Of a stretch of DNA of 64,000 nt, positions 39,498-62,403 are shown piece by piece. The position numbers were made by a program, and so were the translations under genes. The notes beneath the pieces are model-generated. The model saw nothing but the letters and a program-made list of their open reading frames with translations, was not told the origin of the DNA and did no database searches. Source of the stretch: Bacteroidaceae bacterium (GTDB lineage Bacteria > Bacillota > Clostridia > Peptostreptococcales > Anaerovoracaceae); the NCBI GenBank assembly GCA_963603335.1, contig CAVCML010000052.1, positions 5,665-69,664 of the forward strand. Reading direction: 5' to 3'. Numbering within the stretch: position 1 is the first letter of the stretch; every line of letters begins with the position of its first letter.

Positions 39498-39513
39498 TGG
39501 CACGCGTGTTGCT
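39498..39513 (+). promoter_or_regulatory. Sigma54 (-24/-12) promoter, operon 1
   Basis: TGGCAC-GCGTG-TTGCT is an exact TGGCAC-N5-TTGCW match, 57 nt upstream of the ATG at 39570. Confidence 0.8.
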
Positions 39514-39569
39514 TTATATGAAGGCGTAAAGGAAAACATGGTGAAAACGAAATCGGAGGACTAATCAAG

Positions 39570-40766: not shown

Positions 40767-41167
40767 CATAAAGAACATGCTTTGAGGAGTGCTGCAAAAA
40801 ACTATTACATTTATTCACTGCGGACACTCGAGTAAGTCGTAACAGACAGGACTCCTGCAAAGCTGCGTTCGGAAAACAAATAAATTTGTCTCCATTTATC
40901 CATGTATGTCATTAATACGAAGTGCGCAGCCTGCATTTCGCAGGCTGCAGCTTCAGATGGCATATAAAGATAATTAATATAAATTATAACATTACACATA
41001 AATAACTTAGCAAATTAACTAACTTAAGAGACATTCTTAACTTAATTTAGTACTCCTTTTTTAGGTATCCGATAAATTATTTTGGAGAAGGTTCGTCGGA
41101 TATCTAAAGCAGGAGACAGAAAAGTCGTTCCTGAAATGTAACCGTCAATATAAAAGAGGAGGAGCAT

Positions 41168-41932
41168 ATGGATTTTTCGTTAAAAGAAAAGACTGCGATT
41201 GTAGTCGGAGGAAGCAAAGGTCTGGGCTTCGGTATGGCAACGGGACTTGCGAAAGCGGGAGCCAATGTTGTTCTGGTAAGCCGAAACCAGGGACAGTTAG
41301 ATGATGCAGCTGCAAAGATTTCTCAGGAAACCGGAAACGCCAACGTTGTTGGTTTTGCAACGGATATCACATCAACAGAAAACATCAACGGCCTTATTGC
41401 AAAGGTTTGTGACAAGTTCGGACAGATTGATATTCTGTTCAACGGAGCAGGCGTCAATAAGCGTTTCTCTGCTCTGGAATTCACTGAAGAAGATTGGGAC
41501 ATCGTACAGGATACGCAGCTGAAATACGTATTCTTCATGTGCCAGGCAGTAGCGAGACAGATGGTGGAAAAAGGCATCAAGGGAAAGATTATCAATATCG
41601 CTTCTCTGACAAGCGAGCTGGGACTGCCTAATATGATTTCATACTGCGCAGCTAAAGGTGCAATCGTACAGATTACAAAAGCTATGGCCAATGAATGGGC
41701 TCAGTACGGCATCAATGTAAATGCCATCGGACCGGGATACTATGAGACCGAGATGACTGCACCGCTCTTTGCAGATGAAAAACGCAGAGCAGAACTCTTT
41801 GCAAGAATCCCGCAGAAGAGATTCGGATTACCGTCCGACCTGGCAGGAGCCGCAGTATTCCTGGCTTCAGAAGCATCGGACTATGTAACGGGACAGGTGT
41901 TATATGTAGACGGAGGATTCCTCTGTTGTTAA
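41168..41932 (+). CDS. Short-chain dehydrogenase/reductase (KduD/gluconate-5-dehydrogenase-like)
   Basis: Cofactor motif VVGGSKGLGFG, plus NGAG and the catalytic YCAAK. Confidence 0.85.
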   Translation: MDFSLKEKTAIVVGGSKGLGFGMATGLAKAGANVVLVSRNQGQLDDAAAKISQETGNANVVGFATDITSTENINGLIAKVCDKFGQIDILFNGAGVNKRFSALEFTEEDWDIVQDTQLKYVFFMCQAVARQMVEKGIKGKIINIASLTSELGLPNMISYCAAKGAIVQITKAMANEWAQYGINVNAIGPGYYETEMTAPLFADEKRRAELFARIPQKRFGLPSDLAGAAVFLASEASDYVTGQVLYVDGGFLCC

Positions 41933-41985
41933 TCCATACAAACAATATATTTAATCGCTTTTAGCAAAAAAGGAGAGTAAACAAA

Positions 41986-43422
41986 ATGATGAATGGAAAT
42001 GAGTACAAGGAAAGTTTAAGAAAAATCCACCCGACGATTTATTACATGGGTGAAAAGATTGACTGCGTGGTAGATCATCCGATGATTAAGCCGCACGTAA
42101 ATTCTGCAGCAATGACATATGATCTGGCTTGCGATCCGATGTATGAGAACCTGATGACAGCAACTTCTCATCTGACAGGCAAGAAGGTAAACCGTTTTAC
42201 GCATATTCACCAGAGCATTGAAGATCTGGTAAACAAAGTAAAGATGATGAGAATGATTGCACAGAAGACAGGTACATGCTTCCAGAGATGCGTAGGCTTC
42301 GATGCAATGAACGCAACTTTCATCACTACTTATAACATGGACAAGAAGTACGGCACAAACTACCACGAAAGATTCAAGAAGTGGATGACATACGTACAGG
42401 AAAACGATCTCATGATCGCAGGTGCTATGACTGACGTTAAGGGCAACAGAAGCCTGAAGCCTTCCAAGCAGGCAGATCCTGACCTCTTCACTCACGTTGT
42501 TGAAAAGAGAGAAGACGGTGTTGTAATCTGTGGTGCAAAGGCTCACATGACAGGTATGGCAAACTCCCACGAAATGCTGATTCTGCCGACAACAAATCTG
42601 TTGGAAGATGACACGGATTACGCTATCGCATGTGCGGTTCCTGTAGATGCAGAAGGTATCACTCACATCTTCGGAAGACAGACAAACGATCAGAGAAGAC
42701 TGCAGGGCGACCTGGATACAGGTAACTCCGAATATGCTATCGTAGGCGGCGAAACACTGACGGTTCTGGATCACGTATTCGTTCCTTGGGACAGAGTATT
42801 CATGTGCGGAGAAGTTGATTTCGCTCAGGACTATGTAGCAAGATTTGCAGCATATCACAGACAGAACTACGGCGGATGCAAGGTTGGTAACTCCGATGTT
42901 CTTATCGGCGCTACTTCCATGATCGCTAAGATGAACGGAACCAGAAAGAACAGCCTGATTAAGGATAAGCTTACAGAAATGATTCATCTGGCAGAAACAA
43001 TGTACTGCTGCTCCCTGGCTTGCTCTTATGAAGGTGTTAAAGAAGAAGCCGGAAGCTATTATGTAAATACATTACTGGCTAACGAAGTTAAGCTCAACTG
43101 CACCAGAAACATGTATGAGATTTCCAGACTGGCTCACGATATCGCAGGCGGATTTATCGCAACGCTGCCTCACGAGTGGGATCTGAACAATCCGGAAACA
43201 GGCAAGTGGATTGAGAAGTTCTTCGTAGGAAATGAAGAGTACACGGCAAGAGACAGAATCAAGATCGCAAGACTTCTTGAAAACATGTCCGGCGGTACTG
43301 CTCTGGCAGAGTCCATGCACGGCGCAGGTTCCCCGCAGGCTATGAAGGTAATGATTCTGAGAGAATCCAACGTAGAACAGAAAGAACAGTTCGCAATGGA
43401 TCTGGCACACGTGAAATTATAA
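41986..43422 (+). CDS. abfD: 4-hydroxybutyryl-CoA dehydratase / vinylacetyl-CoA isomerase (AbfD)-type FAD/[4Fe-4S] enzyme
   Basis: 478 aa. It is collinear with C. aminobutyricum AbfD as I recall it. All four cluster ligands are conserved: CFQRC (C98, C102; nt 42277-42291) and YHRQNYGGC (H291, C298; nt 42856-42879). Confidence 0.85.
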   Translation: MMNGNEYKESLRKIHPTIYYMGEKIDCVVDHPMIKPHVNSAAMTYDLACDPMYENLMTATSHLTGKKVNRFTHIHQSIEDLVNKVKMMRMIAQKTGTCFQRCVGFDAMNATFITTYNMDKKYGTNYHERFKKWMTYVQENDLMIAGAMTDVKGNRSLKPSKQADPDLFTHVVEKREDGVVICGAKAHMTGMANSHEMLILPTTNLLEDDTDYAIACAVPVDAEGITHIFGRQTNDQRRLQGDLDTGNSEYAIVGGETLTVLDHVFVPWDRVFMCGEVDFAQDYVARFAAYHRQNYGGCKVGNSDVLIGATSMIAKMNGTRKNSLIKDKLTEMIHLAETMYCCSLACSYEGVKEEAGSYYVNTLLANEVKLNCTRNMYEISRLAHDIAGGFIATLPHEWDLNNPETGKWIEKFFVGNEEYTARDRIKIARLLENMSGGTALAESMHGAGSPQAMKVMILRESNVEQKEQFAMDLAHVKL

Positions 43423-43560
43423 TTTCAATCACAGCATCGCGCCGGATTAACCAACCGGCGTGATGATCTGATATATTTAAAGTTTAGCAAACGCGGGTGT
43501 AAAAAATGATTTTAGAGAAAGTCTGCTAATTGGAACGCAGCACAGAATGGAGGAAGAACA

Positions 43561-44742
43561 ATGAATGAAGTTGTAATAGTAGAGGGGGTCAGAACCGCTA
43601 CCGGCGTGTTCGGAGGCTCATTAAGTAAAATTCCGGCACCGGTACATGGCGCAGAATGTGTAAAAGCGCTGGTTGAAAGAACAGGAATAAAGCCTGAGGA
43701 TATCGATGAACTGATTATCGGAACTCACTTCCAGGCAGGAACAAAAGCTAACCCGGCTCGTCAGTGCGGTATCTATGCAGGTCTGCCGGATACGATCCCG
43801 GCATTCACACCGAACAAGAACTGTGCAACAGCCATGAAGGCAATGCAGTGCGCAGCACAGTCCATTCAGGTTGGTGACAATGAAGTAGTAATCGCAGGCG
43901 GCTGCGAGACTATGAGTGCAATCCCTTACATCCTGCCGAAGGCAAGATTCGGATACAGAATGGGACCGGGAAAAATCGAAGACAGCATGCTTCATGACGG
44001 ACTCGTTGACCCGTTCATGAACTACCACATGGGTATTACAGCAGAAAACGTAGCAGAAAAATGCGGCATCACCAGAGAAATGCAGGACAGATTTGCTGTA
44101 AACAGCCATAACAAAGCGGAAAAAGCATGGGCTGAGGGGAAATATGACAATGATATCGTGCCTATTACAACGAAGGTAAAGGGACAGGAAGTCGTATTTG
44201 ACCACGATGAAACATATAGAAAAGACGCAAAGTATGAGAACTTTGCAAAACTGAAGCCTATCTTCAAAGAAGGCGGAACAGTAACAGCAGGAAATGCTTC
44301 CCCGATCAATGACGGATCGTGCGTGCTGCTGATGATGTCGGCAGAAAAGGCAAAGGCGCTTGGTTACAAGCCGATCGCTAAGTACATTGCAGCAACGTCA
44401 ACAGCTCTCAGTCCATCTATCATGGGATACGCACCGGTAAGCGCTGTTGAAAAACTGGAAAAGAAGACAGGAATCAGCCGTTACGATGTAGGTCTTTATG
44501 AACTGAACGAAGCGTTTGCAGCTCAGGCAGCAGCATGCGTACAGGATCTGAAGCTGGATCCGGAAATCGTAAACGTAAACGGCGGCGCAGTAGCTTTGGG
44601 ACACGCTGTAGGATGTACCGGAGCAAGAATCAGCTTGACTCTGATGCGTGAAATGCAGAGAAGAAAGGTTCAGTACGGAATCGCTTCACTGTGCATCGGC
44701 GGCGGACAGGCTATGGCAATGATGTTTGAACTGTGCGAATAA
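43561..44742 (+). CDS. Acetyl-CoA acetyltransferase (thiolase II)
   Basis: 393 aa. Active-site contexts NKNCATAMKA, GNASPINDG, NGGAVALGHAVGCTG and CIGGGQ. Confidence 0.9.
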   Translation: MNEVVIVEGVRTATGVFGGSLSKIPAPVHGAECVKALVERTGIKPEDIDELIIGTHFQAGTKANPARQCGIYAGLPDTIPAFTPNKNCATAMKAMQCAAQSIQVGDNEVVIAGGCETMSAIPYILPKARFGYRMGPGKIEDSMLHDGLVDPFMNYHMGITAENVAEKCGITREMQDRFAVNSHNKAEKAWAEGKYDNDIVPITTKVKGQEVVFDHDETYRKDAKYENFAKLKPIFKEGGTVTAGNASPINDGSCVLLMMSAEKAKALGYKPIAKYIAATSTALSPSIMGYAPVSAVEKLEKKTGISRYDVGLYELNEAFAAQAAACVQDLKLDPEIVNVNGGAVALGHAVGCTGARISLTLMREMQRRKVQYGIASLCIGGGQAMAMMFELCE

Positions 44743-44760
44743 TAATTTGGAGGAATCAGG

Positions 44761-45615
44761 ATGACTGTTAAAAAATTATATGTCGTAGGTTCCGGAGCAA
44801 TGGGCTCCGGAATCGCACAGACAGCGGCAACTCATGGTATTCAGGTTACTATGAATGACATAAATGAAGAATTTGTTGCAAAAGGTTACAACAAAATCAA
44901 GAAGAGCCTGGAAAAGGCTGTTACAAAGGGCAGAATGACAGAAGAAGCTAAAGAGGAAGCACTTGCAAACTTGACAACTACAGTCTCGCTGGAAGATGCA
45001 AAGGATGCTGATTTTGTTATCGAAGCTGCATCGGAAAACAAGGAAATAAAGCTGGGAATCTTCAAGCAGTTAGATAAAATCTGTAAGCCTGAAGCAATCC
45101 TTGCTTCCAACACATCTTCTCTGCCGATTACAGAAATCGCAGCAGCAACCGAAAGACCGGATCAGGTAATCGGAACTCACTTCTTCAACCCGGTACCGGC
45201 TATGAAGCTGCTGGAGATCGTAATGGGACTTCAGACATCCGAGACAACTTATCAGGCAGCGCTGGCTCTGGGAGAGCAGCTGGAAAAAGTGCCTGTAAAG
45301 GCAATGGACAAAGGCGGTTTCATTGTAAACAGACTGGTTGACCCGTTCATCAATGAAGCGGTATTCATGCTTGAAGAAGGCGTTGGTACTGCAGAAGATA
45401 TCGACAACGGCTGTAAGTTCGGACTCAACCACCCGATGGGTCCTCTTGCATTAGGCGATATGATCGGTTGGGATGTTATGCTGGCGGTTATGGACGTACT
45501 GTATTATGAATACGGTGATCCTAAGTACAGACCGGCACCGCTGATGAGAAGAATGGTAAGAGCTGGACATCTCGGTGTTAAAACCGGTAAAGGTGTTTAT
45601 GATTATTCGAAATAA
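44761..45615 (+). CDS. hbd: 3-hydroxybutyryl-CoA dehydrogenase
   Basis: [13 protein letters not shown] Rossmann motif, NTSSLPITE, and GFIVNRL. Confidence 0.9.
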
Positions 45616-45626
45616 TGAGGTGTGTT

Positions 45627-46406
45627 ATGGAATATAAGAACATTATTTTTGAAAAGAAAGACGGTATCGGCTACGTTACAATGAATCGTCCTAAAGCTCT
45701 GAATGCTTTGAATACAGACGTTTTGACAGAACTGGATGATGTGTTCCGTGCAATTGATAAAGACGATGAAGTTCAGGTTGCAATTGTAACCGGAGAGGGA
45801 AGATCTTTCATCGCAGGTGCTGATATTGCACAGATGAGCGACCTGAACGGCACAGAGGGCCGCGACATGACAATCCAGGGTCAGCTGGTAATGGAACTTA
45901 TCGAAACTATCAACAAGCCTGTTATCGCTGCGGTAAACGGATTCGCTCTTGGCGGCGGAAATGAACTGGCTATGGCATGCGACATCAGAATTGCTTCCGA
46001 AAAAGCTAAATTCGGTCAGCCGGAAGTAAACCTGGGAATTATTCCGGGATACGGCGGAACACAGAGACTGCCGCGCCTTGTCGGAAAAGGTATGGCAAAG
46101 AAGCTGATCTACAGTGCAGAGATGATTGATGCACAGGAAGCTTACCGCATCGGTCTGGTGCAGGAAGTTGTACCGGCAGAAGAGCTTATGGAAGCTGCTG
46201 AAAAGCTGGCAAAGACTATCATGAGCAAGGCTCCGATTGCTATCAAGATGGCAAAGGTTGCTATCAATAACGGACTGAGCACAGATCTGAAGACAGGCGT
46301 ACAGTTCGAAGCGGAAGCTTATACGAGCACATTCGTATCCGAAGACAGAGTAGAAGGTATGAAGGCGTTTGTAGAAAAGCGTCCGGCTGAATTTAAAAAT
46401 AAATAA
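45627..46406 (+). CDS. crt: Enoyl-CoA hydratase (crotonase)
   Basis: YVTMNRPKALNAL, FIAGADI and GGGNELAMACDIRIA motifs. The ATG follows GAGGTG. Confidence 0.85.
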   Translation: MEYKNIIFEKKDGIGYVTMNRPKALNALNTDVLTELDDVFRAIDKDDEVQVAIVTGEGRSFIAGADIAQMSDLNGTEGRDMTIQGQLVMELIETINKPVIAAVNGFALGGGNELAMACDIRIASEKAKFGQPEVNLGIIPGYGGTQRLPRLVGKGMAKKLIYSAEMIDAQEAYRIGLVQEVVPAEELMEAAEKLAKTIMSKAPIAIKMAKVAINNGLSTDLKTGVQFEAEAYTSTFVSEDRVEGMKAFVEKRPAEFKNK

Positions 46407-46510: not shown

Positions 46511-46532
46511 ATTTATAGAAACAAATGCAGTT

Positions 46533-48347
46533 TTACTCTATTCCATCGGGGAACAGCTCTTTATATTTTCGAAAGAATGTCGGTTGGCTCATGTCAAGCA
46601 ATGCAGCAGCTTTATAGGTGGAGCCGCCCTGCCTCATGGCACGTTGAATTAATTCTTTTTCCATGTTTTTCTTGGCTTCGGCATAGGTCGGCAAGGTATC
46701 GGATGCTAAAATATTCGATGTTTTCATTTCTGAATTATGAAATTCCTGCTTCACTGTAAATTCCGGTGCAAACGGGGCATCGAGAATATTGTCATCGGCA
46801 AAAACGAATTGTTTTTCAATGAAATTTTTTAATTCGCGAATGTTTCCCGGCCAGTCATGGTGCTGCAGATGCTGGATGAAATGCGGGGTCATGATTTTGT
46901 GTGCGCCGTATTTCCGGTTCAGATCCTGCAGCGATTTTTCTGCCAGATCGGGTATATCGTCCCTGCGGTCGCGCAGCGGCGGGATGTTGATGGACACCAC
47001 ATTGAGGCGGTAATATAAATCGCTTCGGAAGGTTCCTTCCTCAATCATTTCTTTCAGATTTCGGTTGGTGGCGGCGACGATGCGAACGTCGACTTTTTTG
47101 CTCTTCTGTCCGCCGACCCGGGTAACTTCTCGATCCTGCAGAACCCGCAGGAGGGCCGACTGGAGGTTGATAGGCAGCTCACCGATTTCATCCAGGAAGA
47201 GCGTGCCTGTATCGGCCAGTTCGAACATGCCGGGCTTTCCCTTGGCACTGGCTCCGGTAAAAGCTCCGGGAACGTAACCGAAGAGCTCTGATTCCAGCAG
47301 GTTTTGAGGAATTGCACCGCAGTTGATTTTGATATACGGTTTGCCGTCGCGCATGCTGTGTTTATGAATGTACTGAGCAACGACCTCTTTACCGACGCCG
47401 GTCTCTCCCAAAATCAATACGGTTGAATCCATGCGTGAAATTTTTTCCGCCATTGCAAGTACAGCGGAGAATTCATTGCTGCTGCAGACGATGTTTTCAT
47501 GTGAAGATTCCTGCATAAGCTGGCTTTTATATAAATCCGCACGATCCGTTTCAACCTGAAGTTTTTTGTTCAGGCTGATAATCTCGGTGATATCGCGAAC
47601 GTTGGTGATTACATTGCGGACATTTCCGTTGTTGTCAAATACAGGGCTTCCGGTGATGAATACCTCTTTGTTGTTTGAATTCGTCTGTGTGCGGGTTATT
47701 ACCTCCTTGCGTTTAACGACATCGTGCGTAATGCTTGTAGAGAGTATGCCTCGTGCGATAAGATCGTCCATATACTCACCGACAAGTTTTGTGCGGGGTA
47801 TACCGGAAATTCGTTCGTATGCTTTGTTGACAAGGATTGTTTTGCCGGTGTAATCTGTGATATAGATGCCGTCATAAGAATTGTCAAGGATATCGCCGAG
47901 CAGATGTGCGTTTCTGAGATTTCTGTTGGTGCGCTCATCGTATATGTTTGCGTCGGTCAATTCGCAGAGATGGCTTACGACGGCGAGAATTTCATTATCG
48001 TGAACGAGAGGAATTCGTTCTGAATATACTTTTTTGTTTTTAAGCGTAAATTCCTTCGGAAGCGATGCAAGGTCGCCCGCTTTTGAGAAAGTGAAAGGGC
48101 ACAAAGGGAGCGTATTGTTTAAGTCATGATCAATCATCGATGATTCAGAGACCTCAAAAAGCGCAGCAGCCAGATAGTTTGCCATAACAATTCTGTTGTT
48201 GGAATCGATAGCGATGACAGCCATATTGGAAGCTTCAATGTATGAATCGGTAAAATCATTTATGATTTCAGGAAGCTCGGGACAGCTGCCTTTGTAATTT
48301 GGAAAAAACAGATTTAAGTACTCTGTAATGAATGTTTGTGAAATCAT
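46533..48347 (-). CDS. Sigma54-dependent transcriptional activator (PAS sensor domains, AAA+ domain, Fis-type HTH)
   Basis: Walker A GETGVGKE, the sigma54-contact loop GAFTGA (in YVPGAFTGAS), RVGG, and the C-terminal HTH YKAAALLDMSQPTFFRKYKEL. I chose the ATG at 48347, after GAGGTGG. Confidence 0.9.
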   Translation of the reverse strand: MISQTFITEYLNLFFPNYKGSCPELPEIINDFTDSYIEASNMAVIAIDSNNRIVMANYLAAALFEVSESSMIDHDLNNTLPLCPFTFSKAGDLASLPKEFTLKNKKVYSERIPLVHDNEILAVVSHLCELTDANIYDERTNRNLRNAHLLGDILDNSYDGIYITDYTGKTILVNKAYERISGIPRTKLVGEYMDDLIARGILSTSITHDVVKRKEVITRTQTNSNNKEVFITGSPVFDNNGNVRNVITNVRDITEIISLNKKLQVETDRADLYKSQLMQESSHENIVCSSNEFSAVLAMAEKISRMDSTVLILGETGVGKEVVAQYIHKHSMRDGKPYIKINCGAIPQNLLESELFGYVPGAFTGASAKGKPGMFELADTGTLFLDEIGELPINLQSALLRVLQDREVTRVGGQKSKKVDVRIVAATNRNLKEMIEEGTFRSDLYYRLNVVSINIPPLRDRRDDIPDLAEKSLQDLNRKYGAHKIMTPHFIQHLQHHDWPGNIRELKNFIEKQFVFADDNILDAPFAPEFTVKQEFHNSEMKTSNILASDTLPTYAEAKKNMEKELIQRAMRQGGSTYKAAALLDMSQPTFFRKYKELFPDGIE

Positions 48348-48365
48348 ATAAACCACCTCGTTTCA

Positions 48366-48374: not shown

Positions 48375-48420
48375 ATTGTATATGATTTAACAATTATATC
48401 ACAAATAGAGGAATGCGGAC

Positions 48421-48854: not shown

Positions 48855-48857
48855 AAT

Positions 48858-48873
48858 TGGCACGCAATTTGCG
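48858..48873 (+). promoter_or_regulatory. Sigma54 (-24/-12) promoter, operon 2
   Basis: TGGCAC-GCAAT-TTGCG, 101 nt upstream of the ATG at 48974. Confidence 0.75.
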
Positions 48874-48973
48874 ATATATATTGGCGGCGCCAAAAGAAAG
48901 TTATTATAATTGACATTTTATTTATTTCAGAAGAATCAGAAATCGTTTATTTGGAATTGAGAAAGGAAAAAGT

Positions 48974-50437
48974 ATGAGTACACAGAACAATAATCTGGAA
49001 CGCCAGACTTTTGCCAAAACTCTTGGTAGAGGAGAAATTTGGGCATTCGCCTTCGGATCTGTAGTAGGATGGGGCTGGGTAATGCTCGCAGGAGGCTGGG
49101 TAAGTTCAGCCGGAAGTGTTGGAGCTATTATAGCATTCGTAATTGCAGGACTTGTTTGCGGATTTATCGGAATGGCATTTGCAGAGCTTTGCCCTATGAT
49201 TCCTCAGACAGGAGGCGTATTGGTATTTGCTTACAGAGCAGGTGGATATAAATTCGGCTGGTTCGCAGCGTGGGCGATGGCATTCGCTTATATCGCAGTA
49301 GCATGCTGGGAAGGTCCGGCGTTCGGAAGTGCGGTGGAATATCTGATTCCGCAGCTTACAAACAATGCGGATGTTCTTTATTCTATTGAAGGATATGATG
49401 TAACTCTGCCATGGGTTATCATCGCATTGGCAGGTACTGTATTCACAATCATTTGCAACTGGATCGGCATGAGCTTTGCTAAGATTGTAAACACAATCGC
49501 AGCACTGGCACTGGTAGCCGGTGGTTTAATCTTCTTCTTCGGAGGTGTAACATTAGGTGATGTTTCCAACGCTCTGCCTGCATTCAACAGCGGCTTCAGC
49601 GGCATATTTATCGTACTTATGGCTGCACCGGCTATGTTCGTTGGATTCGACGTTATTCCGCAGTCGGTAGAAGACATGAAGATTCCTATGAAGCAGGTTG
49701 GTAAAATGGTTATTTTGGCAATCGTGCTCGGAGCAATCTGGTACATCCTGATGATTATAGGATCCTCTTTCGGCGCACCGGCATCATTCCGTGACAACGC
49801 AAGCATCCCGGTAGCTGATATCGCTACTTATGTATTTGGATCCAAGATCTTCGGTTCATTCGTTATCATCGCAGGTATCGGCGGCATCCTGACAAGCTGG
49901 AACGCTATGTACATCGGGGCTACAAGAATCCTCTTCGCACTTGCAAGAGCTAAGATGCTTCCGCCTGTATTCAGCAAACTGCACCCTAAATACAATTCAC
50001 CTACAGCAGCTCTGATTCTGGTTGGAGCACTGGGACTGGCATCCGTATTCCTCGGCAAGAACGCACTGGGATGGTTCGTAGACGCAAGTTCCTTCGGTAC
50101 TGTAGTAGCATACTTCTGCGCAGCTTTGGCATTCTACAAGTTAAAGGTAGACGAACCGGATACAGAAAGACCGTTCAAGGCACCGTTAGGAAAGTTCATG
50201 GCTATCCTGGCTATCGTATCCTCCGGATTATTCATCTGCATCTACCTGCCGTTCAGCCCATCCGGTGGCCTGGGACATATGGAATGGATCATGGTTGCTC
50301 TGTGGACAGTAATCGGTATCATCCTCGCTATCAGCGTTCGCTGCAGCAGCTACTCCAAGGTTACAGCTGCTGAACGTGAATACCTGATCTTTGGTGAAGA
50401 ATATGCCAGAAAGTCTATAATAGACGCTGACAAATAG
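48974..50437 (+). CDS. APC-superfamily amino acid permease
   Basis: 487 aa, about 12 TM helices. It is the first gene after the sigma54 promoter. Confidence 0.8.
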   Translation: MSTQNNNLERQTFAKTLGRGEIWAFAFGSVVGWGWVMLAGGWVSSAGSVGAIIAFVIAGLVCGFIGMAFAELCPMIPQTGGVLVFAYRAGGYKFGWFAAWAMAFAYIAVACWEGPAFGSAVEYLIPQLTNNADVLYSIEGYDVTLPWVIIALAGTVFTIICNWIGMSFAKIVNTIAALALVAGGLIFFFGGVTLGDVSNALPAFNSGFSGIFIVLMAAPAMFVGFDVIPQSVEDMKIPMKQVGKMVILAIVLGAIWYILMIIGSSFGAPASFRDNASIPVADIATYVFGSKIFGSFVIIAGIGGILTSWNAMYIGATRILFALARAKMLPPVFSKLHPKYNSPTAALILVGALGLASVFLGKNALGWFVDASSFGTVVAYFCAALAFYKLKVDEPDTERPFKAPLGKFMAILAIVSSGLFICIYLPFSPSGGLGHMEWIMVALWTVIGIILAISVRCSSYSKVTAAEREYLIFGEEYARKSIIDADK

Positions 50438-50654
50438 TAACTTGATTAGATAAAACGTAAATATAAAAATTCATTCTAATGAAGAGAAAGCAGTCATGCA
50501 GTGACGTAAATGTTGCTGCATGGCTGTTTTCCTTTTGCATAAAAAAATATCGGTATGCAAGCGAAAAATCCTTGAAATCTAAACGCGTATGCACTATTAT
50601 GTACAATGTGGCGTGTATAATTATACATGCATGAGTAAACATCAGGAGGTTGTT

Positions 50655-50858
50655 ATGGCGGAAATTAAAGTGGATGTCAGCAGATGCAAAGGCTGTTTTT
50701 TATGTACAAGCGTTTGCCCTAAAGGCGTGCTGATACCATCGGACGAATTAGGTGTAAAGGGATTCCCTATCGTACACCGGGACGAGACTAAGGAATGTAT
50801 CGGATGCGGAGCCTGCTACAAAATGTGCGGCGACTACTGCATCGAGATTATAGATTAA
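50655..50858 (+). CDS. 2-oxoacid:ferredoxin oxidoreductase delta subunit (2x[4Fe-4S] ferredoxin)
   Basis: 67 aa from the ATG after AGGAGG. Motifs CKGCFLCTSVCP and CIGCGACYKMC. Confidence 0.8.
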   Translation: MAEIKVDVSRCKGCFLCTSVCPKGVLIPSDELGVKGFPIVHRDETKECIGCGACYKMCGDYCIEIID

Positions 50859-50872
50859 GAGGAGGCAGAATC

Positions 50873-51949
50873 ATGGCAAAAATATTAATGAAGGGAAATG
50901 AAGCCCTGGCTGAAGCCTGCCTTCGCGCCGGATGCAGATTTTTCAGCGGATATCCCATTACTCCGCAGACTGAAATTTTAGAGTATCTTTGCTGGAGAAT
51001 GGATGAAGTCGGCGGTACATGCGTGCAGACGGAATCCGAGCTTGCCGGCGTTAACATGCTGCTCGGCGCAGCATCGGCAGGTGCGCGTGCATTGACAACA
51101 ACATCAGGTCCGGGATTCTCGCTTAAGCAGGAAGGAATCTCATACCTTTGCGGCAGTGATGTGCCTGCAGTTATCGTAGACGTACAGAGAATAGGGTCTG
51201 CACTTGGCGATATTTTCATGGGACAGGGCGACTACTGGCAGTTGACCAGAGGCGGCGGCCACGGAGATTACAGAACTTTGGTTCTGGCACCGAACAGCGT
51301 GCAGGAGAGCGTTGACTTAGCAGGAGAAGCATTCGACCTGGCTGAGAAATATCGTCATCCGGTAATCATCGCCACAGATGCTACTATCGGCCAGATGATT
51401 GAACCTGTAGAACTCCCGGAGATGCATGAGCATGACATGGATCAATATGACTGGGCTATCAGACCTCGCCGGGAAGGCGAACCGCAGAGAGCTATCTGGA
51501 ACCGTTACTGGGATTGGGACTGGAAGGATACGTCCGTAGGCGGACATATGTATCCGAAGTATCTGCTGGACAAGTACGGCCGGATGGAGGAGACAGAGCA
51601 GCGCTGGGAGGAAGTGGAGACTGAAGATGCTGAGATTATTATGGTAGCTTACGGCACAAGTGCCAGAGTTGCCAAGTCCGCAGTTGCCCGCGCTCGCAAG
51701 GAAGGTATCAAAGCAGGCCTTATCAGACCTATCACGCTTTGGCCGTATCCTAAGAAAGCATTCGACAAACTGGGAAGTCAGGTTAAGGCAATTCTCGATG
51801 TAGAGAGAAACATTCTTGGTCAGATGAAGGATGATATCGTTCTGGCAACGGGCAATAGGCTGCCGGTTGAATTCTATGGTGAATACTGGGACAACATGAA
51901 CGAGATTAAGATGGTCGATATTGCCAGAGACATGCTGACAAGATATTAA
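50873..51949 (+). CDS. 2-oxoacid:ferredoxin oxidoreductase alpha subunit
   Basis: The N-terminus MKGNEALAEACLRAGCRFFSGYPITPQTE is typical of KorA/PorA/VorA. Confidence 0.85.
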   Translation: MAKILMKGNEALAEACLRAGCRFFSGYPITPQTEILEYLCWRMDEVGGTCVQTESELAGVNMLLGAASAGARALTTTSGPGFSLKQEGISYLCGSDVPAVIVDVQRIGSALGDIFMGQGDYWQLTRGGGHGDYRTLVLAPNSVQESVDLAGEAFDLAEKYRHPVIIATDATIGQMIEPVELPEMHEHDMDQYDWAIRPRREGEPQRAIWNRYWDWDWKDTSVGGHMYPKYLLDKYGRMEETEQRWEEVETEDAEIIMVAYGTSARVAKSAVARARKEGIKAGLIRPITLWPYPKKAFDKLGSQVKAILDVERNILGQMKDDIVLATGNRLPVEFYGEYWDNMNEIKMVDIARDMLTRY

Positions 51950-51961
51950 GGAGGTGCCTCA

Positions 51962-52702
51962 ATGAACTTTAAAATAAATAAAGATATCGACATGGACAAG
52001 CAGGCTTCCTGGTGTCCCGGATGCGGTCATGGCATTGTTTGCCGCGTTATCACTGACGCGGTAACAGAACTCGGCGTAAGCGGTAAAATTATCACAGTTG
52101 ACGATGTAGCGTGCGGCCAGTTCGGACAGTTCGCTATGAAATACAATACTGTTATGGGTGCGCACGGCAGAACCATTCCTACCGCTGCCGGTATTAAGAG
52201 AGTCAGACCTGATTCCCTGGTTATTGCACGTCCGGGTGACGGATCGGCGTACAGCATAGGTATTGAGTCAACATTGTACAGCGCAATTCGCAATGAGAAT
52301 ATCTTAGCAATCGTTATTAACAACAGCGTATTCGGCATGACAGGCGGACAGATGTCACCTACATCACTGCCCGGGATGAAGACTGCAACATCGCCTTTTG
52401 GACGTGATGAACGCAAGAACGGCAGCATGGTAGACATCTCCAAGATTCTGGCCGGAACCGATATGGCATATATGGCACGTGTAGCAGTTAATACACCTGC
52501 CAATACCGATAAGGCAAAGAAGGCAATCAAGAAGGCACTGGTAAAGCAGATGAACGGCGAAGGCTTCTGCCTGGTCGAGGTTCTCAGCATGTGCCCGACC
52601 AACTGGAAAATGTCCGAAATTGACGCTTGTGAATTCATAAAGACAACACAGAGTAAGTATCTCCCGTTAGGAGAGTTCATAGACAGAGAGGGGGATAAAT
52701 AA
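51962..52702 (+). CDS. 2-oxoacid:ferredoxin oxidoreductase beta subunit (TPP-binding)
   Basis: WCPGCGHG motif and GDGSAYSIG (a GDG-type TPP motif). Confidence 0.85.
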   Translation: MNFKINKDIDMDKQASWCPGCGHGIVCRVITDAVTELGVSGKIITVDDVACGQFGQFAMKYNTVMGAHGRTIPTAAGIKRVRPDSLVIARPGDGSAYSIGIESTLYSAIRNENILAIVINNSVFGMTGGQMSPTSLPGMKTATSPFGRDERKNGSMVDISKILAGTDMAYMARVAVNTPANTDKAKKAIKKALVKQMNGEGFCLVEVLSMCPTNWKMSEIDACEFIKTTQSKYLPLGEFIDREGDK

Positions 52703-53244
52703 TGAATGAGATAATCTGCTCAGGATTAGGAGGACAGGGTGTTCTCGTTGCCGGCATGATTTTAGCCGATATGGCTATGGAGGATGGCAAGAACGTTTCC
52801 TGGTATCCTTCATACGGATTCGAGATGCGCGGCGGTGCAGCCAACTGTGAGCTCAAAATCGGCGATGAGGATCTGCAAAGCCCGTATTGCCTGGAACCTG
52901 ATGTATTATATACACTCAGCGAATCGGCTATTGATTCGTTCGAAGACAGACTTAAGCCGGGCGGCGTACTGCTGGTGAATTCAAGCCTTACCAGCGATGA
53001 ACGCAAGTATCGTGATGATATTACGGTTATCAAGGTGCCGGCTACCGAGATTGCAAATGAACTTAAAAACGGACGCGGCACTAATCTGGTAATGCTGGGC
53101 GCCATGGCAGCTGCATCGGATTTATACGATGTAGAACAGATGCAGGCAGGCATTCGGAATTACTTCGGCAAGAAGGGCAAGAACAATCCTAAGAACGACC
53201 GGTGCTTTGAGCGCGGTGTTGAAGCGGCAAGGGGGCAGTTATAA
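52702..53244 (+). CDS. 2-oxoacid:ferredoxin oxidoreductase gamma subunit
   Basis: GLGGQGVLVAG motif. 180 aa. Its ATG overlaps the beta-subunit stop codon. Confidence 0.8.
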   Translation: MNEIICSGLGGQGVLVAGMILADMAMEDGKNVSWYPSYGFEMRGGAANCELKIGDEDLQSPYCLEPDVLYTLSESAIDSFEDRLKPGGVLLVNSSLTSDERKYRDDITVIKVPATEIANELKNGRGTNLVMLGAMAAASDLYDVEQMQAGIRNYFGKKGKNNPKNDRCFERGVEAARGQL

Positions 53245-53245
53245 T

Positions 53246-54472
53246 ATGACAGATATGAAGATGCCTCTGGAAGGCGTTAAAGTTGTTGAGATGGCAACGG
53301 TTGTTGCCGCACCGACCACGGCACGCGTACTGAGCACATACGGTGCTGATGTCATCAAAGTTGAAACACTGGGCGGAGATGTAATGCGTCTTGCCGGCAC
53401 TCATGAATTAACGCCGTATACTGATGAATGCAACCCGTTGTTTACAATTCACAACAGCGGCAAGAAATTCATCGCAATAAATTTCAAGACGCCGGAAGGC
53501 AAGAAAATTTTAATAGACCTTATCAAAGATGCGGATGTTTTCATCACTAATGTCCGCGAGAAGTCAATGATAAAAAACGGTCTTGACTATGAAACGTTAA
53601 AAGAGATTAACCCGGGACTCATATACGCTCAGTTCACCGGCTACGGCAGCAAGGGACCTGCAGCTAACGACCCCGGATTTGATATTACAGCGTTCTGGCT
53701 CCGCGGCGGAGCTATGGCTGACTGGGAGACTGAAGGCGCATTCCCTATGGTTCCTACATATGCATTCGGCGATATGGTTACAAGCAATGCATTCCTTGCA
53801 GGAATTATGATGGCTCTGTTCGCCAGGACCAAGACCGGCAAAGGCACTAAGATTGATACTTCGCTCTTAGCAAGCGGCATTTGGTGCAATGCTATCGGTG
53901 TGGTGCAGACGCAGTTTGATCGCAAGCACCTTAACCCGGATCCGCTGACGCCGCCGGATCCGTTCAGCCAGACATACCTTTGCGCTGATAATAGATGGAT
54001 CGGCGTATACTGCAATGAATATGAAGCTGATAAAGCCAAGTTTGCAAAGCTGCTGGACTGCGAGGATATATTAGATGATTCAAGATACGAGAATGTTGAG
54101 ACAATGCACAGCTCCGGAGCGATTAGAGAGATAACTGCACGTCTTAATGAAGTTTTTAAGACCAAGACTTCCGAGGAGTGGCGCCGGTTTTTCAGTGAGA
54201 ACAACGTAGCTGCAGAGATTATGCAGCAGTCATGTGAGGTATCAAGTGACCCGCAGGCTATAGAGAATGAATACATGGTACCGGTGGAATATAACGATGA
54301 GGATCATACCACTGTTATGATGCCTAATCCGCCTATCATGTTCAGCGATTATGAGAGACGCGAGAATGTCCCTACCGGATCAATCGGAGAAGATACCGAT
54401 GCAATCCTCGAGAGCATGGGATATTCAGAAGAAGAGATTCAGAAATTAAGAGATGAGGGCGCTATAGGTTAG
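53246..54472 (+). CDS. Type III (CaiB/BaiF/Frc-family) CoA-transferase, second copy
   Basis: N-terminus PLEGVKVVEMATVVAAPTTARVLSTYGADVIKVE. The ATG lies 1 nt after the gamma-subunit stop codon. Confidence 0.85.
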   Translation: MTDMKMPLEGVKVVEMATVVAAPTTARVLSTYGADVIKVETLGGDVMRLAGTHELTPYTDECNPLFTIHNSGKKFIAINFKTPEGKKILIDLIKDADVFITNVREKSMIKNGLDYETLKEINPGLIYAQFTGYGSKGPAANDPGFDITAFWLRGGAMADWETEGAFPMVPTYAFGDMVTSNAFLAGIMMALFARTKTGKGTKIDTSLLASGIWCNAIGVVQTQFDRKHLNPDPLTPPDPFSQTYLCADNRWIGVYCNEYEADKAKFAKLLDCEDILDDSRYENVETMHSSGAIREITARLNEVFKTKTSEEWRRFFSENNVAAEIMQQSCEVSSDPQAIENEYMVPVEYNDEDHTTVMMPNPPIMFSDYERRENVPTGSIGEDTDAILESMGYSEEEIQKLRDEGAIG

Positions 54473-54495
54473 CAGCGATTATGAGACTTTAATCG

Positions 54496-56031
54496 ATGGA
54501 GAAAAATATGGAGAATTTAAAGAGTAATAACAAGATTAAGGCTGTTGTGGATAAGCCGATATCCATTACCTGTATAGCACTGATTGTGGCTTTCGTGGTA
54601 CTGGTTATAGCCAAACCGGACGCAACGCTGAATGTGGTAAGCGTAATTTTTGACTATGCAACATCAATATTCGGTGTACCGATTTTATGGTTCGTATTCA
54701 TCGGACTTATTATCTGTCTATACTTAGCATTCAGCAAATACGGCAGCATTAAGCTGGGTGAAGGTGAGCCGGAATACTCACTGTTTAGTTACATTGCAAT
54801 GATGATGTGTGCAGCGCTGGCGGCAACTGCCGTTTACTACTCGTTCGTAGAGTGGTCGTTCTATTTAACGGACCCGGCTTTCAATATTGAGGCATACTCG
54901 CAGGAAGCTGCAGAGTATTCACTGGCATATGCTTTCTTTCACTGGGGATTCTCAGTGCAGGTAGTGTTCGTACTGATCAGTGTGTGCATGGCATATGGAT
55001 TCTATGTTAAGAAGGTGCCGCATCTTAGAGTCAGCGCTATCTGCGGTGCAATGATGGGAGACTTTAAATACAAAGGCGCATTGTGCAAAATCATCGATGC
55101 ACTTACAATTCTGAGTGTTATCGGTGGTGTTGGTGTGGTATCAATGGGCGTAGGAGTTCCGATCATCAGTGCCGCCATTTCTAAAGTGCTTGGTATTGAA
55201 GCTGACTTTACAGTTAACTTAATCGTACTGCTTATTGTAGCGGCAGTATTCTCATTCACTTCATTTGTTGGCGTTAAGAAGGGCATGAAGAGACTCAGTG
55301 ATATGACAGTATGGCTTATGATTCTCATTATGGGCTTCATCCTCGTCTTCGGACCAACGAAGTTTATTGTGAAGAACTTTACGTACAGCTGCGCCAAGAT
55401 GCTGTCAAACTATGTAGATATGAGTTTATATACAGATCCTATTGGCAACAGCGGTTTCCCGGAAGCCAATACAATTTTTCTGTTCACACTGGCATTCAAC
55501 TATGCAGCACTTATGGGCATCTTCATTACGAAGATTTCCAGGGGCAGGACTATTAGATCATTGATTCTAAGCTGTCTGGGAGGCATCAGCATCGGAACAT
55601 GGATTATGTTTGGAATCAATGGCAGTTTCGGGCTTAATGCTGAACTTACAGGTGAGTTTGAACTGTCAAAGGCAAGTGACCTTCAGGCAGGCCTTATGGA
55701 TTTGCTCGGAACACTTCCGCTGGGCACGGTCGTATTGCCGATAGCTTTTGCACTGGTAACCATAGGATTCCTGGCAACATCACTGGACTCGGCATCCTTT
55801 GCAATATCAGCGGCAGGATCTAAGAGGCTGGATCAGAATGGCAATCCTAGTACAGCATTCAGAATGTTGATGTGCTTAGTGCTTGTGCTTATTCCTATGG
55901 CACTGCTGTTTACGGGTGCACCGTTTTCAGCAATCAAGACTATTTGTATTGTTTTATCGATTCCATTCCTGTTTATAATCATAGGAATGCTGATAGGCCT
56001 ATTCAAATGGCTCAAACGAGATATTGTATAA
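54496..56031 (+). CDS. Divergent BCCT-family transporter
   Basis: 511 aa, polytopic. It retains the BCCT TM8-end signature FITKISRGRTIRS (canonical FIARISRGRTIRE) and the N-terminal KYGSIKLG...PEYS segment. It lacks the tryptophan-rich part of the motif. Confidence 0.65.
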   Translation: MEKNMENLKSNNKIKAVVDKPISITCIALIVAFVVLVIAKPDATLNVVSVIFDYATSIFGVPILWFVFIGLIICLYLAFSKYGSIKLGEGEPEYSLFSYIAMMMCAALAATAVYYSFVEWSFYLTDPAFNIEAYSQEAAEYSLAYAFFHWGFSVQVVFVLISVCMAYGFYVKKVPHLRVSAICGAMMGDFKYKGALCKIIDALTILSVIGGVGVVSMGVGVPIISAAISKVLGIEADFTVNLIVLLIVAAVFSFTSFVGVKKGMKRLSDMTVWLMILIMGFILVFGPTKFIVKNFTYSCAKMLSNYVDMSLYTDPIGNSGFPEANTIFLFTLAFNYAALMGIFITKISRGRTIRSLILSCLGGISIGTWIMFGINGSFGLNAELTGEFELSKASDLQAGLMDLLGTLPLGTVVLPIAFALVTIGFLATSLDSASFAISAAGSKRLDQNGNPSTAFRMLMCLVLVLIPMALLFTGAPFSAIKTICIVLSIPFLFIIIGMLIGLFKWLKRDIV

Positions 56032-56105
56032 CTTTGTATTTTTAGGGCGCGGTAATGCGCCGTCTGATATAATTGTTGAGTAAATTTTAATAAGAGGAGG
56101 CTAAT

Positions 56106-57284
56106 ATGCCAGTTTTAAGTGAAAGAGTCGGTACATTTACTGACTCGGTTATCCGCAGAATGACAAGAATAAGCGACGAACACGACGCAATCAATTTATC
56201 GCAGGGTTTCCCTGATTTTGATCCGCCTAAGGCAATCATGGACAGACTTGCTGAGGTAGCATACGAGGGACCTCATCAGTATTCGGTAACTTACGGCGAT
56301 CCTAACATTTTAGAGGCGATTGCTCGTAAGCAGAGCAGAACGTCCGGACATCCGGTAAATCCGGAAACAGAGATCTGCGTTACCTGCGGCGGTACGGAAG
56401 CTATGATGGCAGCAATGATGACAATCTGTAATCCGGGGGACAAAGTAATGGTATTCTCACCATTTTATGAGAATTATGGTGCAGATGCGATTTTATCAGG
56501 TGCAGAGCCGATTTACATTCCGCTGGTACCGCCTGAATATAACTTCGATATTAATCTGATTGAAGATGGCTTTAAGCAGGGTGCAAAGGCAATCGTTATT
56601 TGCAACCCTTCCAACCCGTGCGGAAAAGTGTTCACTCGTGAAGAACTTACAGCAATTGCCGAACTTTGCATTAAGTACGATGCATTTGCGGTAACGGATG
56701 AAGTATATGAACACCTGGTGTATGCACCGGCTGAGCACGTATACATGGCATCACTTCCGGGAATGTGGGATCATACGATTACCTGCAACTCGCTCAGTAA
56801 GACTTACTCCATCACCGGATGGCGCCTGGGATATGCTATCGCCAATGAGGAAGTTACAGAGAATATCAGGAAGGTGCATGACTTCTTAACGGTAGGTGCA
56901 CCGGCTCCGCTGCAGGAAGCGGCATGTGCAGGTCTTAACATGCCGGAGTCTTACTATGATGAGCTTACCAAGATGTATACGGAAAAACGTGATTATTTCT
57001 GCAAAGGCTTAGACAGCATCGGTCTTAAGCACAATATTCCGGAGGGTACATACTTCGTACTGGTAGATATCAGCGAATTTTTGGCACTGCCTCAGTTCGA
57101 AGGTATGGACGATCTGGAATTCTGTGAGTGGCTGATTATTAACACCGGAGTTGCTGCGGTACCGGGATCAAGCTTCTTCAAAGAAGAGGTTAATAACTTG
57201 ATTAGATTCCATTTTGCCAGAGAAATGTCAACTATCGATGAAGTTATCAGGAGATTGAGCAAGCTTCAGGACTTACTCAAATAG
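56106..57284 (+). CDS. Class I/II PLP aminotransferase, YbdL / kynurenine-glutamine transaminase (KAT)-like
   Basis: INLSQGFPDFDPP hallmark, ICNPSNPCGKVF, and PLP-lysine context NSLSKTYSITGWRLGY. Confidence 0.85.
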   Translation: MPVLSERVGTFTDSVIRRMTRISDEHDAINLSQGFPDFDPPKAIMDRLAEVAYEGPHQYSVTYGDPNILEAIARKQSRTSGHPVNPETEICVTCGGTEAMMAAMMTICNPGDKVMVFSPFYENYGADAILSGAEPIYIPLVPPEYNFDINLIEDGFKQGAKAIVICNPSNPCGKVFTREELTAIAELCIKYDAFAVTDEVYEHLVYAPAEHVYMASLPGMWDHTITCNSLSKTYSITGWRLGYAIANEEVTENIRKVHDFLTVGAPAPLQEAACAGLNMPESYYDELTKMYTEKRDYFCKGLDSIGLKHNIPEGTYFVLVDISEFLALPQFEGMDDLEFCEWLIINTGVAAVPGSSFFKEEVNNLIRFHFAREMSTIDEVIRRLSKLQDLLK

Positions 57285-57328
57285 ATCGGATTAAGCTTTG
57301 TATTAAAAACAGAACAGAATAAAATCTC

Positions 57329-57353
57329 AAAAGCCAGTCGTTGACTGGCTTTT
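57329..57353 (+). terminator. Rho-independent terminator ending sigma54 operon 2
   Basis: Stem AAAAGCCAGTC / GACTGGCTTTT with a 3-nt loop. Confidence 0.8.
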
Positions 57354-57418
57354 ATAATGGAGAAAAACGGATGCGATTGTTAGTTGAATAATAAACTAAA
57401 TAAATTATATATTTGTGG

Positions 57419-62402: not shown

Positions 62403-62403
62403 T

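Follow-up and report, generated by a model that had tools for sequence, protein, structure and literature searches.

Do the eight genes between positions 48974 and 57284 of a 64 kb stretch of clostridial DNA (the window, meaning the whole stretch that we analysed) form one sigma-54 operon, and do they supply acyl-CoA to the neighbouring operon built around the 4-hydroxybutyryl-CoA dehydratase AbfD? A first-pass annotation had proposed both, with a 2-oxoacid:ferredoxin oxidoreductase (OFOR) as the front end of the AbfD route under a common activator. Our analysis gives a different answer: the interval probably consists of two separate units, a permease belonging to the AbfD regulon and a separately acquired cassette for the oxidation of 2-oxoacids, and the apparent link from the OFOR to AbfD under a common activator most likely reflects no more than chance proximity of the genes.

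The first unit would be a monocistronic permease gene, made up of activator sites, a sigma-54 promoter, the APC permease and a terminator, and belonging to the same PAS-activator regulon as the AbfD operon. The second would be a self-contained cassette with a delta-alpha-beta-gamma OFOR, a type III CoA-transferase, a BCCT-like transporter, a KAT/YbdL aminotransferase and a terminator.

Transcription units and their control

We checked the gene calls by Pfam and NCBIfam scans together with a listing of open reading frames (ORFs), and corrected the starts by reading the sequence and consulting the gene calls on identical contigs. The eight families and their order proved to be as the first-pass annotation had named them: an APC permease, OFOR delta, alpha, beta and gamma, a type III CoA-transferase, a BCCT transporter and a class I aminotransferase, with four starts (delta, alpha, CoA-transferase and BCCT) revised to the positions in Table 1. 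The tight spacing claimed for the whole interval holds inside the cassette from delta to the CoA-transferase, where delta and alpha are 14 nt apart, alpha and beta 12 nt, beta and gamma overlap by 1 nt and gamma is followed by the CoA-transferase after 1 nt, but it does not extend to the permease and delta, which are separated by 218 nt. Towards the 3' end the gaps are 35 nt from the CoA-transferase to BCCT and 74 nt from BCCT to the aminotransferase.

The 218-nt gap holds a terminator-like hairpin of -34 kcal/mol (z = -8.3; 0 of 200 shuffled sequences fold as well), and the view of 48974-57284 as a single sigma-54 operon is not borne out. The -24/-12 promoter and the activator sites that such an operon calls for are present upstream of the first gene, but continuity free of terminators is not. 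Transcription from this promoter would be expected to end at the hairpin, and the cassette would have a promoter of its own, for which a sigma-70-like element upstream of delta is the candidate. No -24/-12 element was found between 50438 and 50655, and beyond the species the intergenic region upstream of delta shows no conservation. An Rfam scan of the whole window gave nothing at the gathering threshold, and thus no riboswitch or leader that would account for the 218-nt gap or for a 402-nt gap within the AbfD operon.

Searching for the -24/-12 pattern TGGCAC-N5-TTGC gave exactly two matches with zero mismatches in 64 kb, at 39498-39512 ahead of the AbfD operon and at 48858-48872 ahead of the permease. 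The palindrome ATTCA-N4-TGAAT occurs exactly 4 times in the window compared to 0.17 expected, with two copies before the permease promoter (Table 1) and the other two at 39300 and 39361, 124-198 bp upstream of the AbfD operon promoter. Since all four sites lie upstream of those two promoters, both promoters very probably answer to one DNA-binding activator, that encoded between them (46533-48356), and the permease promoter does share a regulator-binding motif with that of the AbfD operon. It does not, however, carry the OFOR with it: the proposal of an OFOR front end feeding AbfD under the same activator is unsupported, as the sigma-54 promoter drives the permease, behind which stands a strong terminator.

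The same palindrome is found upstream of sigma-54 promoters in other genomes (L034 at position 2030; L038 at 2650; L039 at 6551; L093 at 9817 and 9842; L094 at 3468-3542). Three of these loci, L034, L038 and L039, carry homologous cassettes that are sigma-54-dependent and have their own activator, 41% identical to that of the window. From this distribution, PrdR-like activators of these Clostridia appear to recognise the palindrome across their whole family, as two activator lineages use it.

Synteny, strain variants and co-occurrence

Homologues of the permease were traced to their contigs and the neighbourhoods read. Two relatives with a permease of 90% identity (L176 and L177) have the order short-chain dehydrogenase/reductase (SDR)-AbfD-Thl-Hbd-Crt, activator, AF_0334 and permease, without an OFOR cassette. 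A similar picture emerges for L178 (62% identity), where the permease comes last in AT3-CoAT-SDR-AbfD-Thl-Hbd, again without the cassette. In L176 a sigma-54-like element (TGGCATGGAAATTGC) precedes the permease, which ends in a strong terminator of its own that differs in sequence from that in the window, and a second activator lies 3' of it on the opposite strand. Because its orthologues adjoin AbfD operons without any cassette, the permease is, by gene neighbourhood, a conserved member of the AbfD regulon and not of the cassette, and it most likely imports the substrate of the AbfD-operon pathway.

Variation among close relatives separates the two units in both directions. Two independent assemblies of the same species (L002, with the junction at 7188/7189, and L004) have a clean 7,497-bp deletion of 42936-50432. 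It begins within abfD, whose 3' third is lost, and runs on through thl, hbd, crt, the activator and AF_0334 to the stop of the permease; these strains retain the terminator, the sigma-70-like region and all cassette genes intact. In the sister species L176, by blastn, the end of the window's permease (50437) and the next conserved gene (about 63899) lie only 160 nt apart, and because of this the region from 50.45 to 63.9 kb is, on such a comparison, a lineage-specific 13.4-kb block that includes the cassette and has no counterpart there. Direct or inverted repeats of at least 10 nt were sought at the ends of the block and none were found. The cassette would thus be independent of AbfD, because the deletion strains lose much of the AbfD regulon yet retain the cassette, and the sister species shows the reverse. 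The deletion junction itself has 1-2 nt of microhomology and fuses a truncated abfD (322 aa) to the region just past the permease stop.

We scanned genomes with the cassette CoA-transferase and obtained 80 loci, one from the same species (a metagenome-assembled genome, or MAG, labelled Anaerotignum sp.) and 79 others, and considered co-occurrence within 10 kb flanks. The CoA-transferase lies directly 3' of OFOR alpha, beta and gamma (50-86% identity) in about 65 of the 79, the hosts of this pairing being Lachnospiraceae, Family XIII, Oscillospiraceae and Acidaminococcus intestini. AbfD, thiolase, Hbd and Crt are found near the CoA-transferase in 0 of the 79, and the co-occurrence of cassette and AbfD in related genomes, by which the first-pass annotation had suggested its proposal be judged, thus fails at the level of gene neighbourhood. 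The AbfD-type loci give the same result from the other side, as none of those examined (L092, L093, L094 and L174-L178) has an OFOR cassette. The label of the same-species MAG (L007), Anaerotignum sp., may be an unreliable taxonomic label for the bin.

In the 79 other loci the cassette usually comes with an aminotransferase or a 2-hydroxyacid dehydrogenase and with varied transporters. A class I/II aminotransferase is present in 24 of the cassette loci, and the transporters are of the SSF (30 loci) and MFS (18 loci) families as well as BCCT-like, NSS and polar-amino-acid ABC types; an arylformamidase-like "cyclase" is another of the varying partners. Oscillospiraceae cassettes carry an IclR regulator, a D-2-hydroxyacid dehydrogenase and a LarA-like racemase. 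For instance, L088/L089 (3677-12538) and about 15 more Oscillospiraceae loci combine IclR, OFOR, SSF, D-2-hydroxyacid dehydrogenase, CoA-transferase and MFS genes, often with a LarA-like nickel racemase, and in this variant the 2-oxoacid seems to derive from a 2-hydroxyacid rather than from an amino acid. The common denominator of the cassettes would be the oxidative decarboxylation of a 2-oxoacid, whether from transamination or from hydroxyacid oxidation, after which the CoA is moved.

Several points weigh against the division into two units. Read-through of the permease hairpin is possible, and the sigma-70-like promoter is a consensus match only. The sigma-54-run cassettes of L034, L038 and L039 imply that a transcript extending into the cassette might, in principle, be under the control of the resident activator, and co-occurrence was tested within the 10 kb flanks only. 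The permease is CAT/BcaP-like rather than GabP-like, so its assignment to the substrate of the AbfD route is tentative. Finally, the AbfD operon of the window is without the class III aminotransferase of its relatives, and the aminotransferase of the cassette is the only one close by. Even so, a leaky hairpin with the resident activator driving the cassette, together with carbon flow into AbfD, is in our judgement a distinctly unlikely combination, and we continue with two separate units as the preferred reading.

Table 1. Features of the window that bear on the two units and on the neighbouring AbfD operon
Feature	Position	Strand	Basis or remarks
Sigma-54-dependent AbfD operon	39498..46406	+	Type III CoA-transferase, SDR, AbfD, thiolase, Hbd, Crt
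Sigma-54 activator, PAS + AAA+ + helix-turn-helix (HTH), PrdR-like	46533..48356	-	Pfam, NCBIfam
Small Cys-rich AF_0334-family protein, 92 aa	48421..48699	+	PF27236 in gene calls
Two palindromic ATTCA-N4-TGAAT sites, putative upstream activating sequences	48692-48705, 48715-48728		130-166 bp upstream of the -24 element
Sigma-54 (-24/-12) promoter TGGCACGCAATTTGC	48858..48872	+	Zero mismatch; about 100 nt upstream of the permease start
APC-family amino-acid permease, CAT/BcaP-like, 487 aa	48974..50437	+	Pfam AA_permease_2
Intrinsic-terminator-like hairpin after the permease	50486..50541	+	Perfect 20-bp stem, 6-nt loop, U-rich tail UUUUCCUUUU
Sigma-70-like TTGAAA-17-TATTAT, candidate cassette promoter	50572..50600	+	10/12 consensus positions; 56 nt upstream of delta
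OFOR delta, 67 aa, two 4Fe-4S motifs	50656..50858	+	Pfam Fer4; start from ribosome-binding site and gene calls
OFOR alpha, 358 aa, YPITP motif (GYPITPQTE)	50873..51949	+	POR_N + PFOR_II
OFOR beta, thiamine pyrophosphate (TPP)-binding, 246 aa	51962..52702	+	TPP_enzyme_C; PorB_KorB-type matches
OFOR gamma, 180 aa	52702..53244	+	Pfam POR, 149 bits
Type III (CaiB/BaiF/Frc) CoA-transferase, 408 aa	53246..54472	+	PF02515, 273.6 bits, profile 1-365/366
BCCT-family transporter, degenerate aromatic box, 507 aa	54508..56031	+	PF02028, 386 bits
Class I aminotransferase, KAT/YbdL group (glutamine transaminase K / methionine aminotransferase), 392 aa	56106..57284	+	PF00155
Terminator hairpin closing the cassette	57328..57354	.	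12-bp stem, U tract

Enzymes and possible substrates of the cassette

The generic chemistry first proposed for these genes stands: after transamination, the 2-oxoacid would be oxidatively decarboxylated to an acyl-CoA with one carbon fewer, and the CoA would then be transferred. The cassette is most likely an oxidative branch of the Stickland type, in which the aminotransferase would convert an imported amino acid to its 2-oxoacid, the OFOR would convert this to CO2, reduced ferredoxin and the shortened acyl-CoA, and the CoA-transferase would hand the CoA to another acid, for instance acetate, and so keep the thioester energy (we infer both the direction and the partners). The free acid would then be exported, possibly by the BCCT-like carrier.

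As to the OFOR, separate alpha, beta, gamma and delta subunits and the YPITP motif in alpha identify an enzyme of the four-subunit type. Alpha passes the NCBIfam model NF005507 of the VorB subfamily with 434.9 bits against a cut-off of 399, and its best solved relatives are of the KOR type; the best NCBIfam matches of delta are OorD and OGOR_delta, both under their cut-offs. Characterised VOR-like enzymes of gut Clostridia are broad, accepting branched-chain, ketomethylthiobutyrate and arylpyruvate 2-oxoacids, and sequence predicts specificity poorly in the VOR-like clade (PMC13290082). A search of the literature for residues that specify 2-oxoglutarate gave nothing usable.

The CoA-transferase is under every NCBIfam equivalog cut-off for Frc, YfdE, CaiB, succinate-glutarate and mesaconate transferases (scoring, for instance, 151 against 750 and 119 against 413), and its best solved relative is succinate-hydroxymethylglutarate CoA-transferase (SUGCT; 144 bits). 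The aminotransferase has KAT3, KAT1 and YbdL as best solved relatives and falls in the KAT/YbdL group, including the LSQGFPDF motif that had been noticed earlier, which lies at residues 31-38; it reaches no NCBIfam equivalog cut-off, and orthologues of 81-87% identity are found in L021, L022, L048, L090 and L091.

These matches could be taken to mean that the OFOR is a 2-oxoglutarate enzyme working on glutamate or glutamine, with succinyl-CoA serving the CoA-transferases and possibly activating 4-hydroxybutyrate in the AbfD operon. Both CoA-transferases resemble users of succinyl-CoA (SUGCT and succinyl-CoA:mesaconate transferase), the KAT family includes glutamine transaminases, and the module is present in the glutamate fermenter Acidaminococcus intestini, but no succinyl-CoA reductase is encoded nearby and the cassette and AbfD fail to co-occur under this explanation too. 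The OFOR evidence is itself divided. Delta matches OorD/OGOR_delta best and the best solved relatives of alpha are KOR-type; however, alpha scores 435 bits on the VorB subfamily model compared to 231 on the OorA-type model, and as no solved VOR exists the ranking by solved structures is biased towards KOR. We regard a 2-oxoglutarate enzyme as very unlikely indeed.

The BCCT-like carrier has the DMSP (dimethylsulfoniopropionate) importer DddT as best solved relative (336 bits, with CaiT at 210). We mapped the published binding residues of DddT (PMC13270143) onto an alignment of the two. Of these, the two carboxylate contacts (S204 and A99) are preserved in the carrier, as are W140 and Y324 of the box, and it has W320 replaced by L, W321 by A, W313 by N and Y317 by L. 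In DddT, W320 is essential, and W313 and Y317 are entry residues (PMC13270143). The onium-binding aromatic (Trp) box of W140, W320, W321 and Y324 is thus incomplete in the carrier, and because of this degenerate box a betaine/trimethylammonium or sulfonium substrate is unlikely; a carboxylate whose head group differs from these would be a more plausible cargo. Routes from trimethyllysine to delta-valerobetaine, through carnitine/gamma-butyrobetaine, or from S-methylmethionine/DMSP, which the pairing of BCCT with a CaiB-like enzyme had suggested, were dropped in view of the degenerate box and of finding no link in the literature.

The leads to the amino acid used by the cassette diverge. Neutral or sulfur amino acids are indicated by the membership of alpha in the VorB subfamily, by the aminotransferase of the KAT/YbdL type and by an NSS transporter in L011; basic or polar ones by the CAT-like permease nearby, the polar-amino-acid ABC transporters of L090 and L091 and the agmatinase-family ureohydrolases of L034 and L036-L038; and 2-oxoglutarate by the OorD-like delta, the KOR-type best solved relatives and the SUGCT-like CoA-transferases. 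Among these, only the basic/polar class could connect to AbfD, by way of 4-aminobutyrate.

Such a connection would run as follows. The cassette would oxidise ornithine or arginine, as basic 2-amino-5-X-pentanoates, to 4-aminobutyryl-CoA or 4-guanidinobutyryl-CoA; the CoA-transferase would free 4-aminobutyrate or 4-guanidinobutyrate, which would become succinate semialdehyde and then 4-hydroxybutyrate, the entry to AbfD, with permease and cassette co-transcribed by read-through. The upstream sites and the single activator are indeed common to both gene sets, but a strong terminator stands between the permease and the cassette, the sister species keeps the whole AbfD regulon without the cassette, and neighbourhood co-occurrence is none in about 85 loci. 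The alpha and beta subunits of the OFOR share 81-86% identity with their counterparts in L034, L036 and L038, and the sigma-54 operons of L034, L036, L037 and L038 encode agmatinase-family ureohydrolases (two in L038), suggesting a guanidino substrate, though ureohydrolases accompany the cassette in this one narrow lineage only and none is encoded in the window. The transporters would fit, as the permease is related to cationic amino-acid transporters (its best solved relative is GkApcT, a homologue of these), the cassettes of L090 and L091 have polar amino-acid ABC transporters on their flanks, and the BCCT-like carrier retains the carboxylate contacts with a remodelled head-group pocket. The AbfD operon of the window is also without an aminotransferase of its own; however, no orthologue of a 4-aminobutyrate aminotransferase is found in the window, where the class III enzyme at 3346 shares just 29% identity, and as a matter of general chemistry 4-aminobutyryl-CoA is expected to lactamise. 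Taken together we find this connection unlikely. The specific scheme in which arginine or ornithine goes through its 2-oxoacid to 4-guanidinobutyryl-CoA or 4-aminobutyryl-CoA, the type III CoA-transferase preserves the thioester, the BCCT-like carrier moves the omega-substituted butyrate and the product enters the AbfD route is, in our view, quite improbable, and no paper describing an OFOR-based arginine route was found in the literature. We thus retain the reading of a cassette separate from AbfD.

The AbfD operon and its regulon

Compared to the Clostridium aminobutyricum dehydratase (1U8V), the AbfD of the window scores 559 bits, and in the alignment C99, C103, H292, C299 and Y296 are all conserved. 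This score and the full set of cluster ligands argue for an ordinary 4-hydroxybutyryl-CoA dehydratase, and against the suggestion that the enzyme acts on other 4-X-butyryl-CoAs. From the families present, with the substrates inferred, the operon would be a route from 4-aminobutyrate/4-hydroxybutyrate through crotonyl-CoA to acetyl-CoA. A sigma-54-dependent abfD operon has already been predicted in Clostridium, as part of the XanR regulon (PMC6615313).

The gene order and sigma-54 promoter recur in L092 (an Anaerovoracaceae MAG), L093 (Bacilliculturomica massiliensis), L174 and L175, and L094 has a similar gene set. A class III aminotransferase accompanies the operon in L093, L174 and L178 and is nearby in L176 too; those of L093 and L174 are orthologous, with 73% identity between them. 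In the window, the class III aminotransferase at 3346-4662 was considered as the missing front end and rejected, since it shares only 29% identity with the enzyme conserved in the relatives. The idea that the APC permease is a 4-aminobutyrate permease of the GabP type was likewise rejected, as it is CAT/BcaP-like. When the CoA-transferase of the AbfD operon was used to scan metagenomes, only distant (about 40%) generic CoA-transferases were found, except in L094.

The activator is an orthologue of those found with AbfD operons: it is 51% identical to that of the Bacilliculturomica massiliensis AbfD operon over 574 aligned residues covering sensor, AAA+ and HTH, and only 41% identical to an OFOR-module activator. 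AF_0334 is paired with the activator in L093, L174, L175 and L176, as in the window, and is present in L094 too; the window protein is 38% identical to the L093 copy, and it might assist the activator as an additional sensor or as a partner. Its copies (L093 5591-5869; L174 7412-7702; L175 19825-20127; L176 9221-9502) are Cys-rich proteins of 92-100 aa, found in at least 5 genomes.

The two gene sets might still be paired for redox balance without any carbon flow between them. The cassette would then yield reduced ferredoxin and ATP and be co-induced with a 4-hydroxybutyrate/crotonyl-CoA electron sink, as in paired Stickland fermentations. Adjacency of the cassette to the AbfD operon and the shared motif family would fit this, as would the Anaerovoracaceae relative L092, where the AbfD operon is extended with Bcd-EtfBA, the reductive branch to butyryl-CoA. 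In the window, however, the operon has thiolase, Hbd and Crt but no Bcd/Etf, and because of this it reads as oxidative towards acetyl-CoA, and the terminator and synteny arguments apply here equally. We hold redox pairing to be very unlikely, and again favour two units that are neighbours only.

In the AbfD operon and in the synteny upstream of it (PcrA-LigA-AIRS), the nearest matches are Anaerovoracaceae MAGs (L092 and others), at 84-95% protein identity. Within the operon a 402-nt non-coding gap at 40767-41167, between the CoA-transferase and the SDR, has no Rfam match; L092 and L175 have comparable gaps, of about 460 nt and about 300 nt respectively.

Relation to known pathways

The nearest described counterpart of the cassette is the oxidative branch of Stickland fermentation, as in the VOR of C. 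sporogenes (CLOSPO_00146-00149) and HpdDEFG with HpdJ/HpdK of C. scatologenes, which it resembles in having four subunits and an alpha of the VorB subfamily. In both, an aminotransferase supplies the 2-oxoacid and the acyl-CoA goes to an energy-conserving step (PMC13290082, PMC13285125). The established branch couples OFOR to a phosphate acyltransferase and kinase or to an ADP-forming ligase, with CoA-transferases unmentioned (PMC13285125). The cassette, unlike this, handles the acyl-CoA by a type III CoA-transferase and includes a BCCT-like carrier with a degenerate box, which shares the full-length BCCT fold of DddT and CaiT but not the complete aromatic box of DddT. OFOR with a type III CoA-transferase would thus be a third way of using the acyl-CoA from amino-acid oxidation, besides Pta/Ack-type pairs and ADP-forming ligases, and the acid produced by the cassette could be a metabolite relevant to the host.

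For the neighbouring operon and the permease the closest known system is the 4-aminobutyrate fermentation of C. aminobutyricum (AbfD, AbfT and AbfH). As there, the AbfD ligands are conserved and the dehydratase is followed by crotonase, Hbd and thiolase; in three relatives the operon also includes, or adjoins, a class III aminotransferase. The window operon differs in having an SDR and a type III CoA-transferase in place of the iron-dependent alcohol dehydrogenase (Fe-ADH) AbfH and the type I AbfT, and in its sigma-54 control, PAS activator and AF_0334 partner. This sigma-54 4-hydroxybutyrate regulon, consisting of activator, AF_0334, permease and AbfD operon with non-orthologous replacements of AbfH and AbfT, bears on the prediction of butyrate or acetate formation from amino compounds. 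The regulon and the cassette emerge as two units that recur in Clostridia of the gut and rumen and have so far gone uncharacterised.

Pseudomonas degrades arginine by a transaminase pathway of AruH, AruI, KauB and GbuA. The cassettes with ureohydrolases (L034-L038) would fit a similar course from arginine through 2-oxoarginine and a 4-guanidinobutyryl derivative to 4-aminobutyrate and urea, though we note this as a lead only. Unlike the Pseudomonas pathway, OFOR and CoA-transferase would here replace the decarboxylase and aldehyde dehydrogenase, and the window has no ureohydrolase. If true, the arginine/ornithine reading would mean a new pathway from arginine or ornithine to butyrate or acetate in gut bacteria.

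Other gene clusters

A variant of the cassette operon is found in rumen Bacillota MAGs, where L038 (2717-12400), and also L034, L036 and L037, have a sigma-54 operon with agmatinase-like genes plus the cassette. The order in L038 is agmatinase-like, cyclase, agmatinase-like, GPH-type transporter, cyclase, OFOR delta-alpha-beta-gamma, type III CoA-transferase and aminotransferase, which suggests a catabolic route for guanidino compounds built around the OFOR/CoA-transferase cassette.

The same 13.4-kb block of the window also contains, at 57553-63807, genes for an RnfB-like polyferredoxin (430 aa), a fused PFOR-like protein (1186 aa) and a GltD/NfnB-like NADPH oxidoreductase (467 aa), possibly forming a pyridine-nucleotide-linked 2-oxoacid oxidoreductase. 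Sigma-70-like promoters precede this cluster, and a second sigma-54 activator starts at the end of the window (about 63899 onward, minus strand).

Near the other end, 3346-11502 encodes a class III aminotransferase, a hydantoinase/oxoprolinase-like protein (4713-6689), an adjacent ORF without family assignment at 6674-8431, an EamA transporter and a GabD-like succinate-semialdehyde dehydrogenase, the last scoring 270 bits to solved enzymes of that kind. The cluster looks like a route from a lactam or omega-amino acid to a dicarboxylate.

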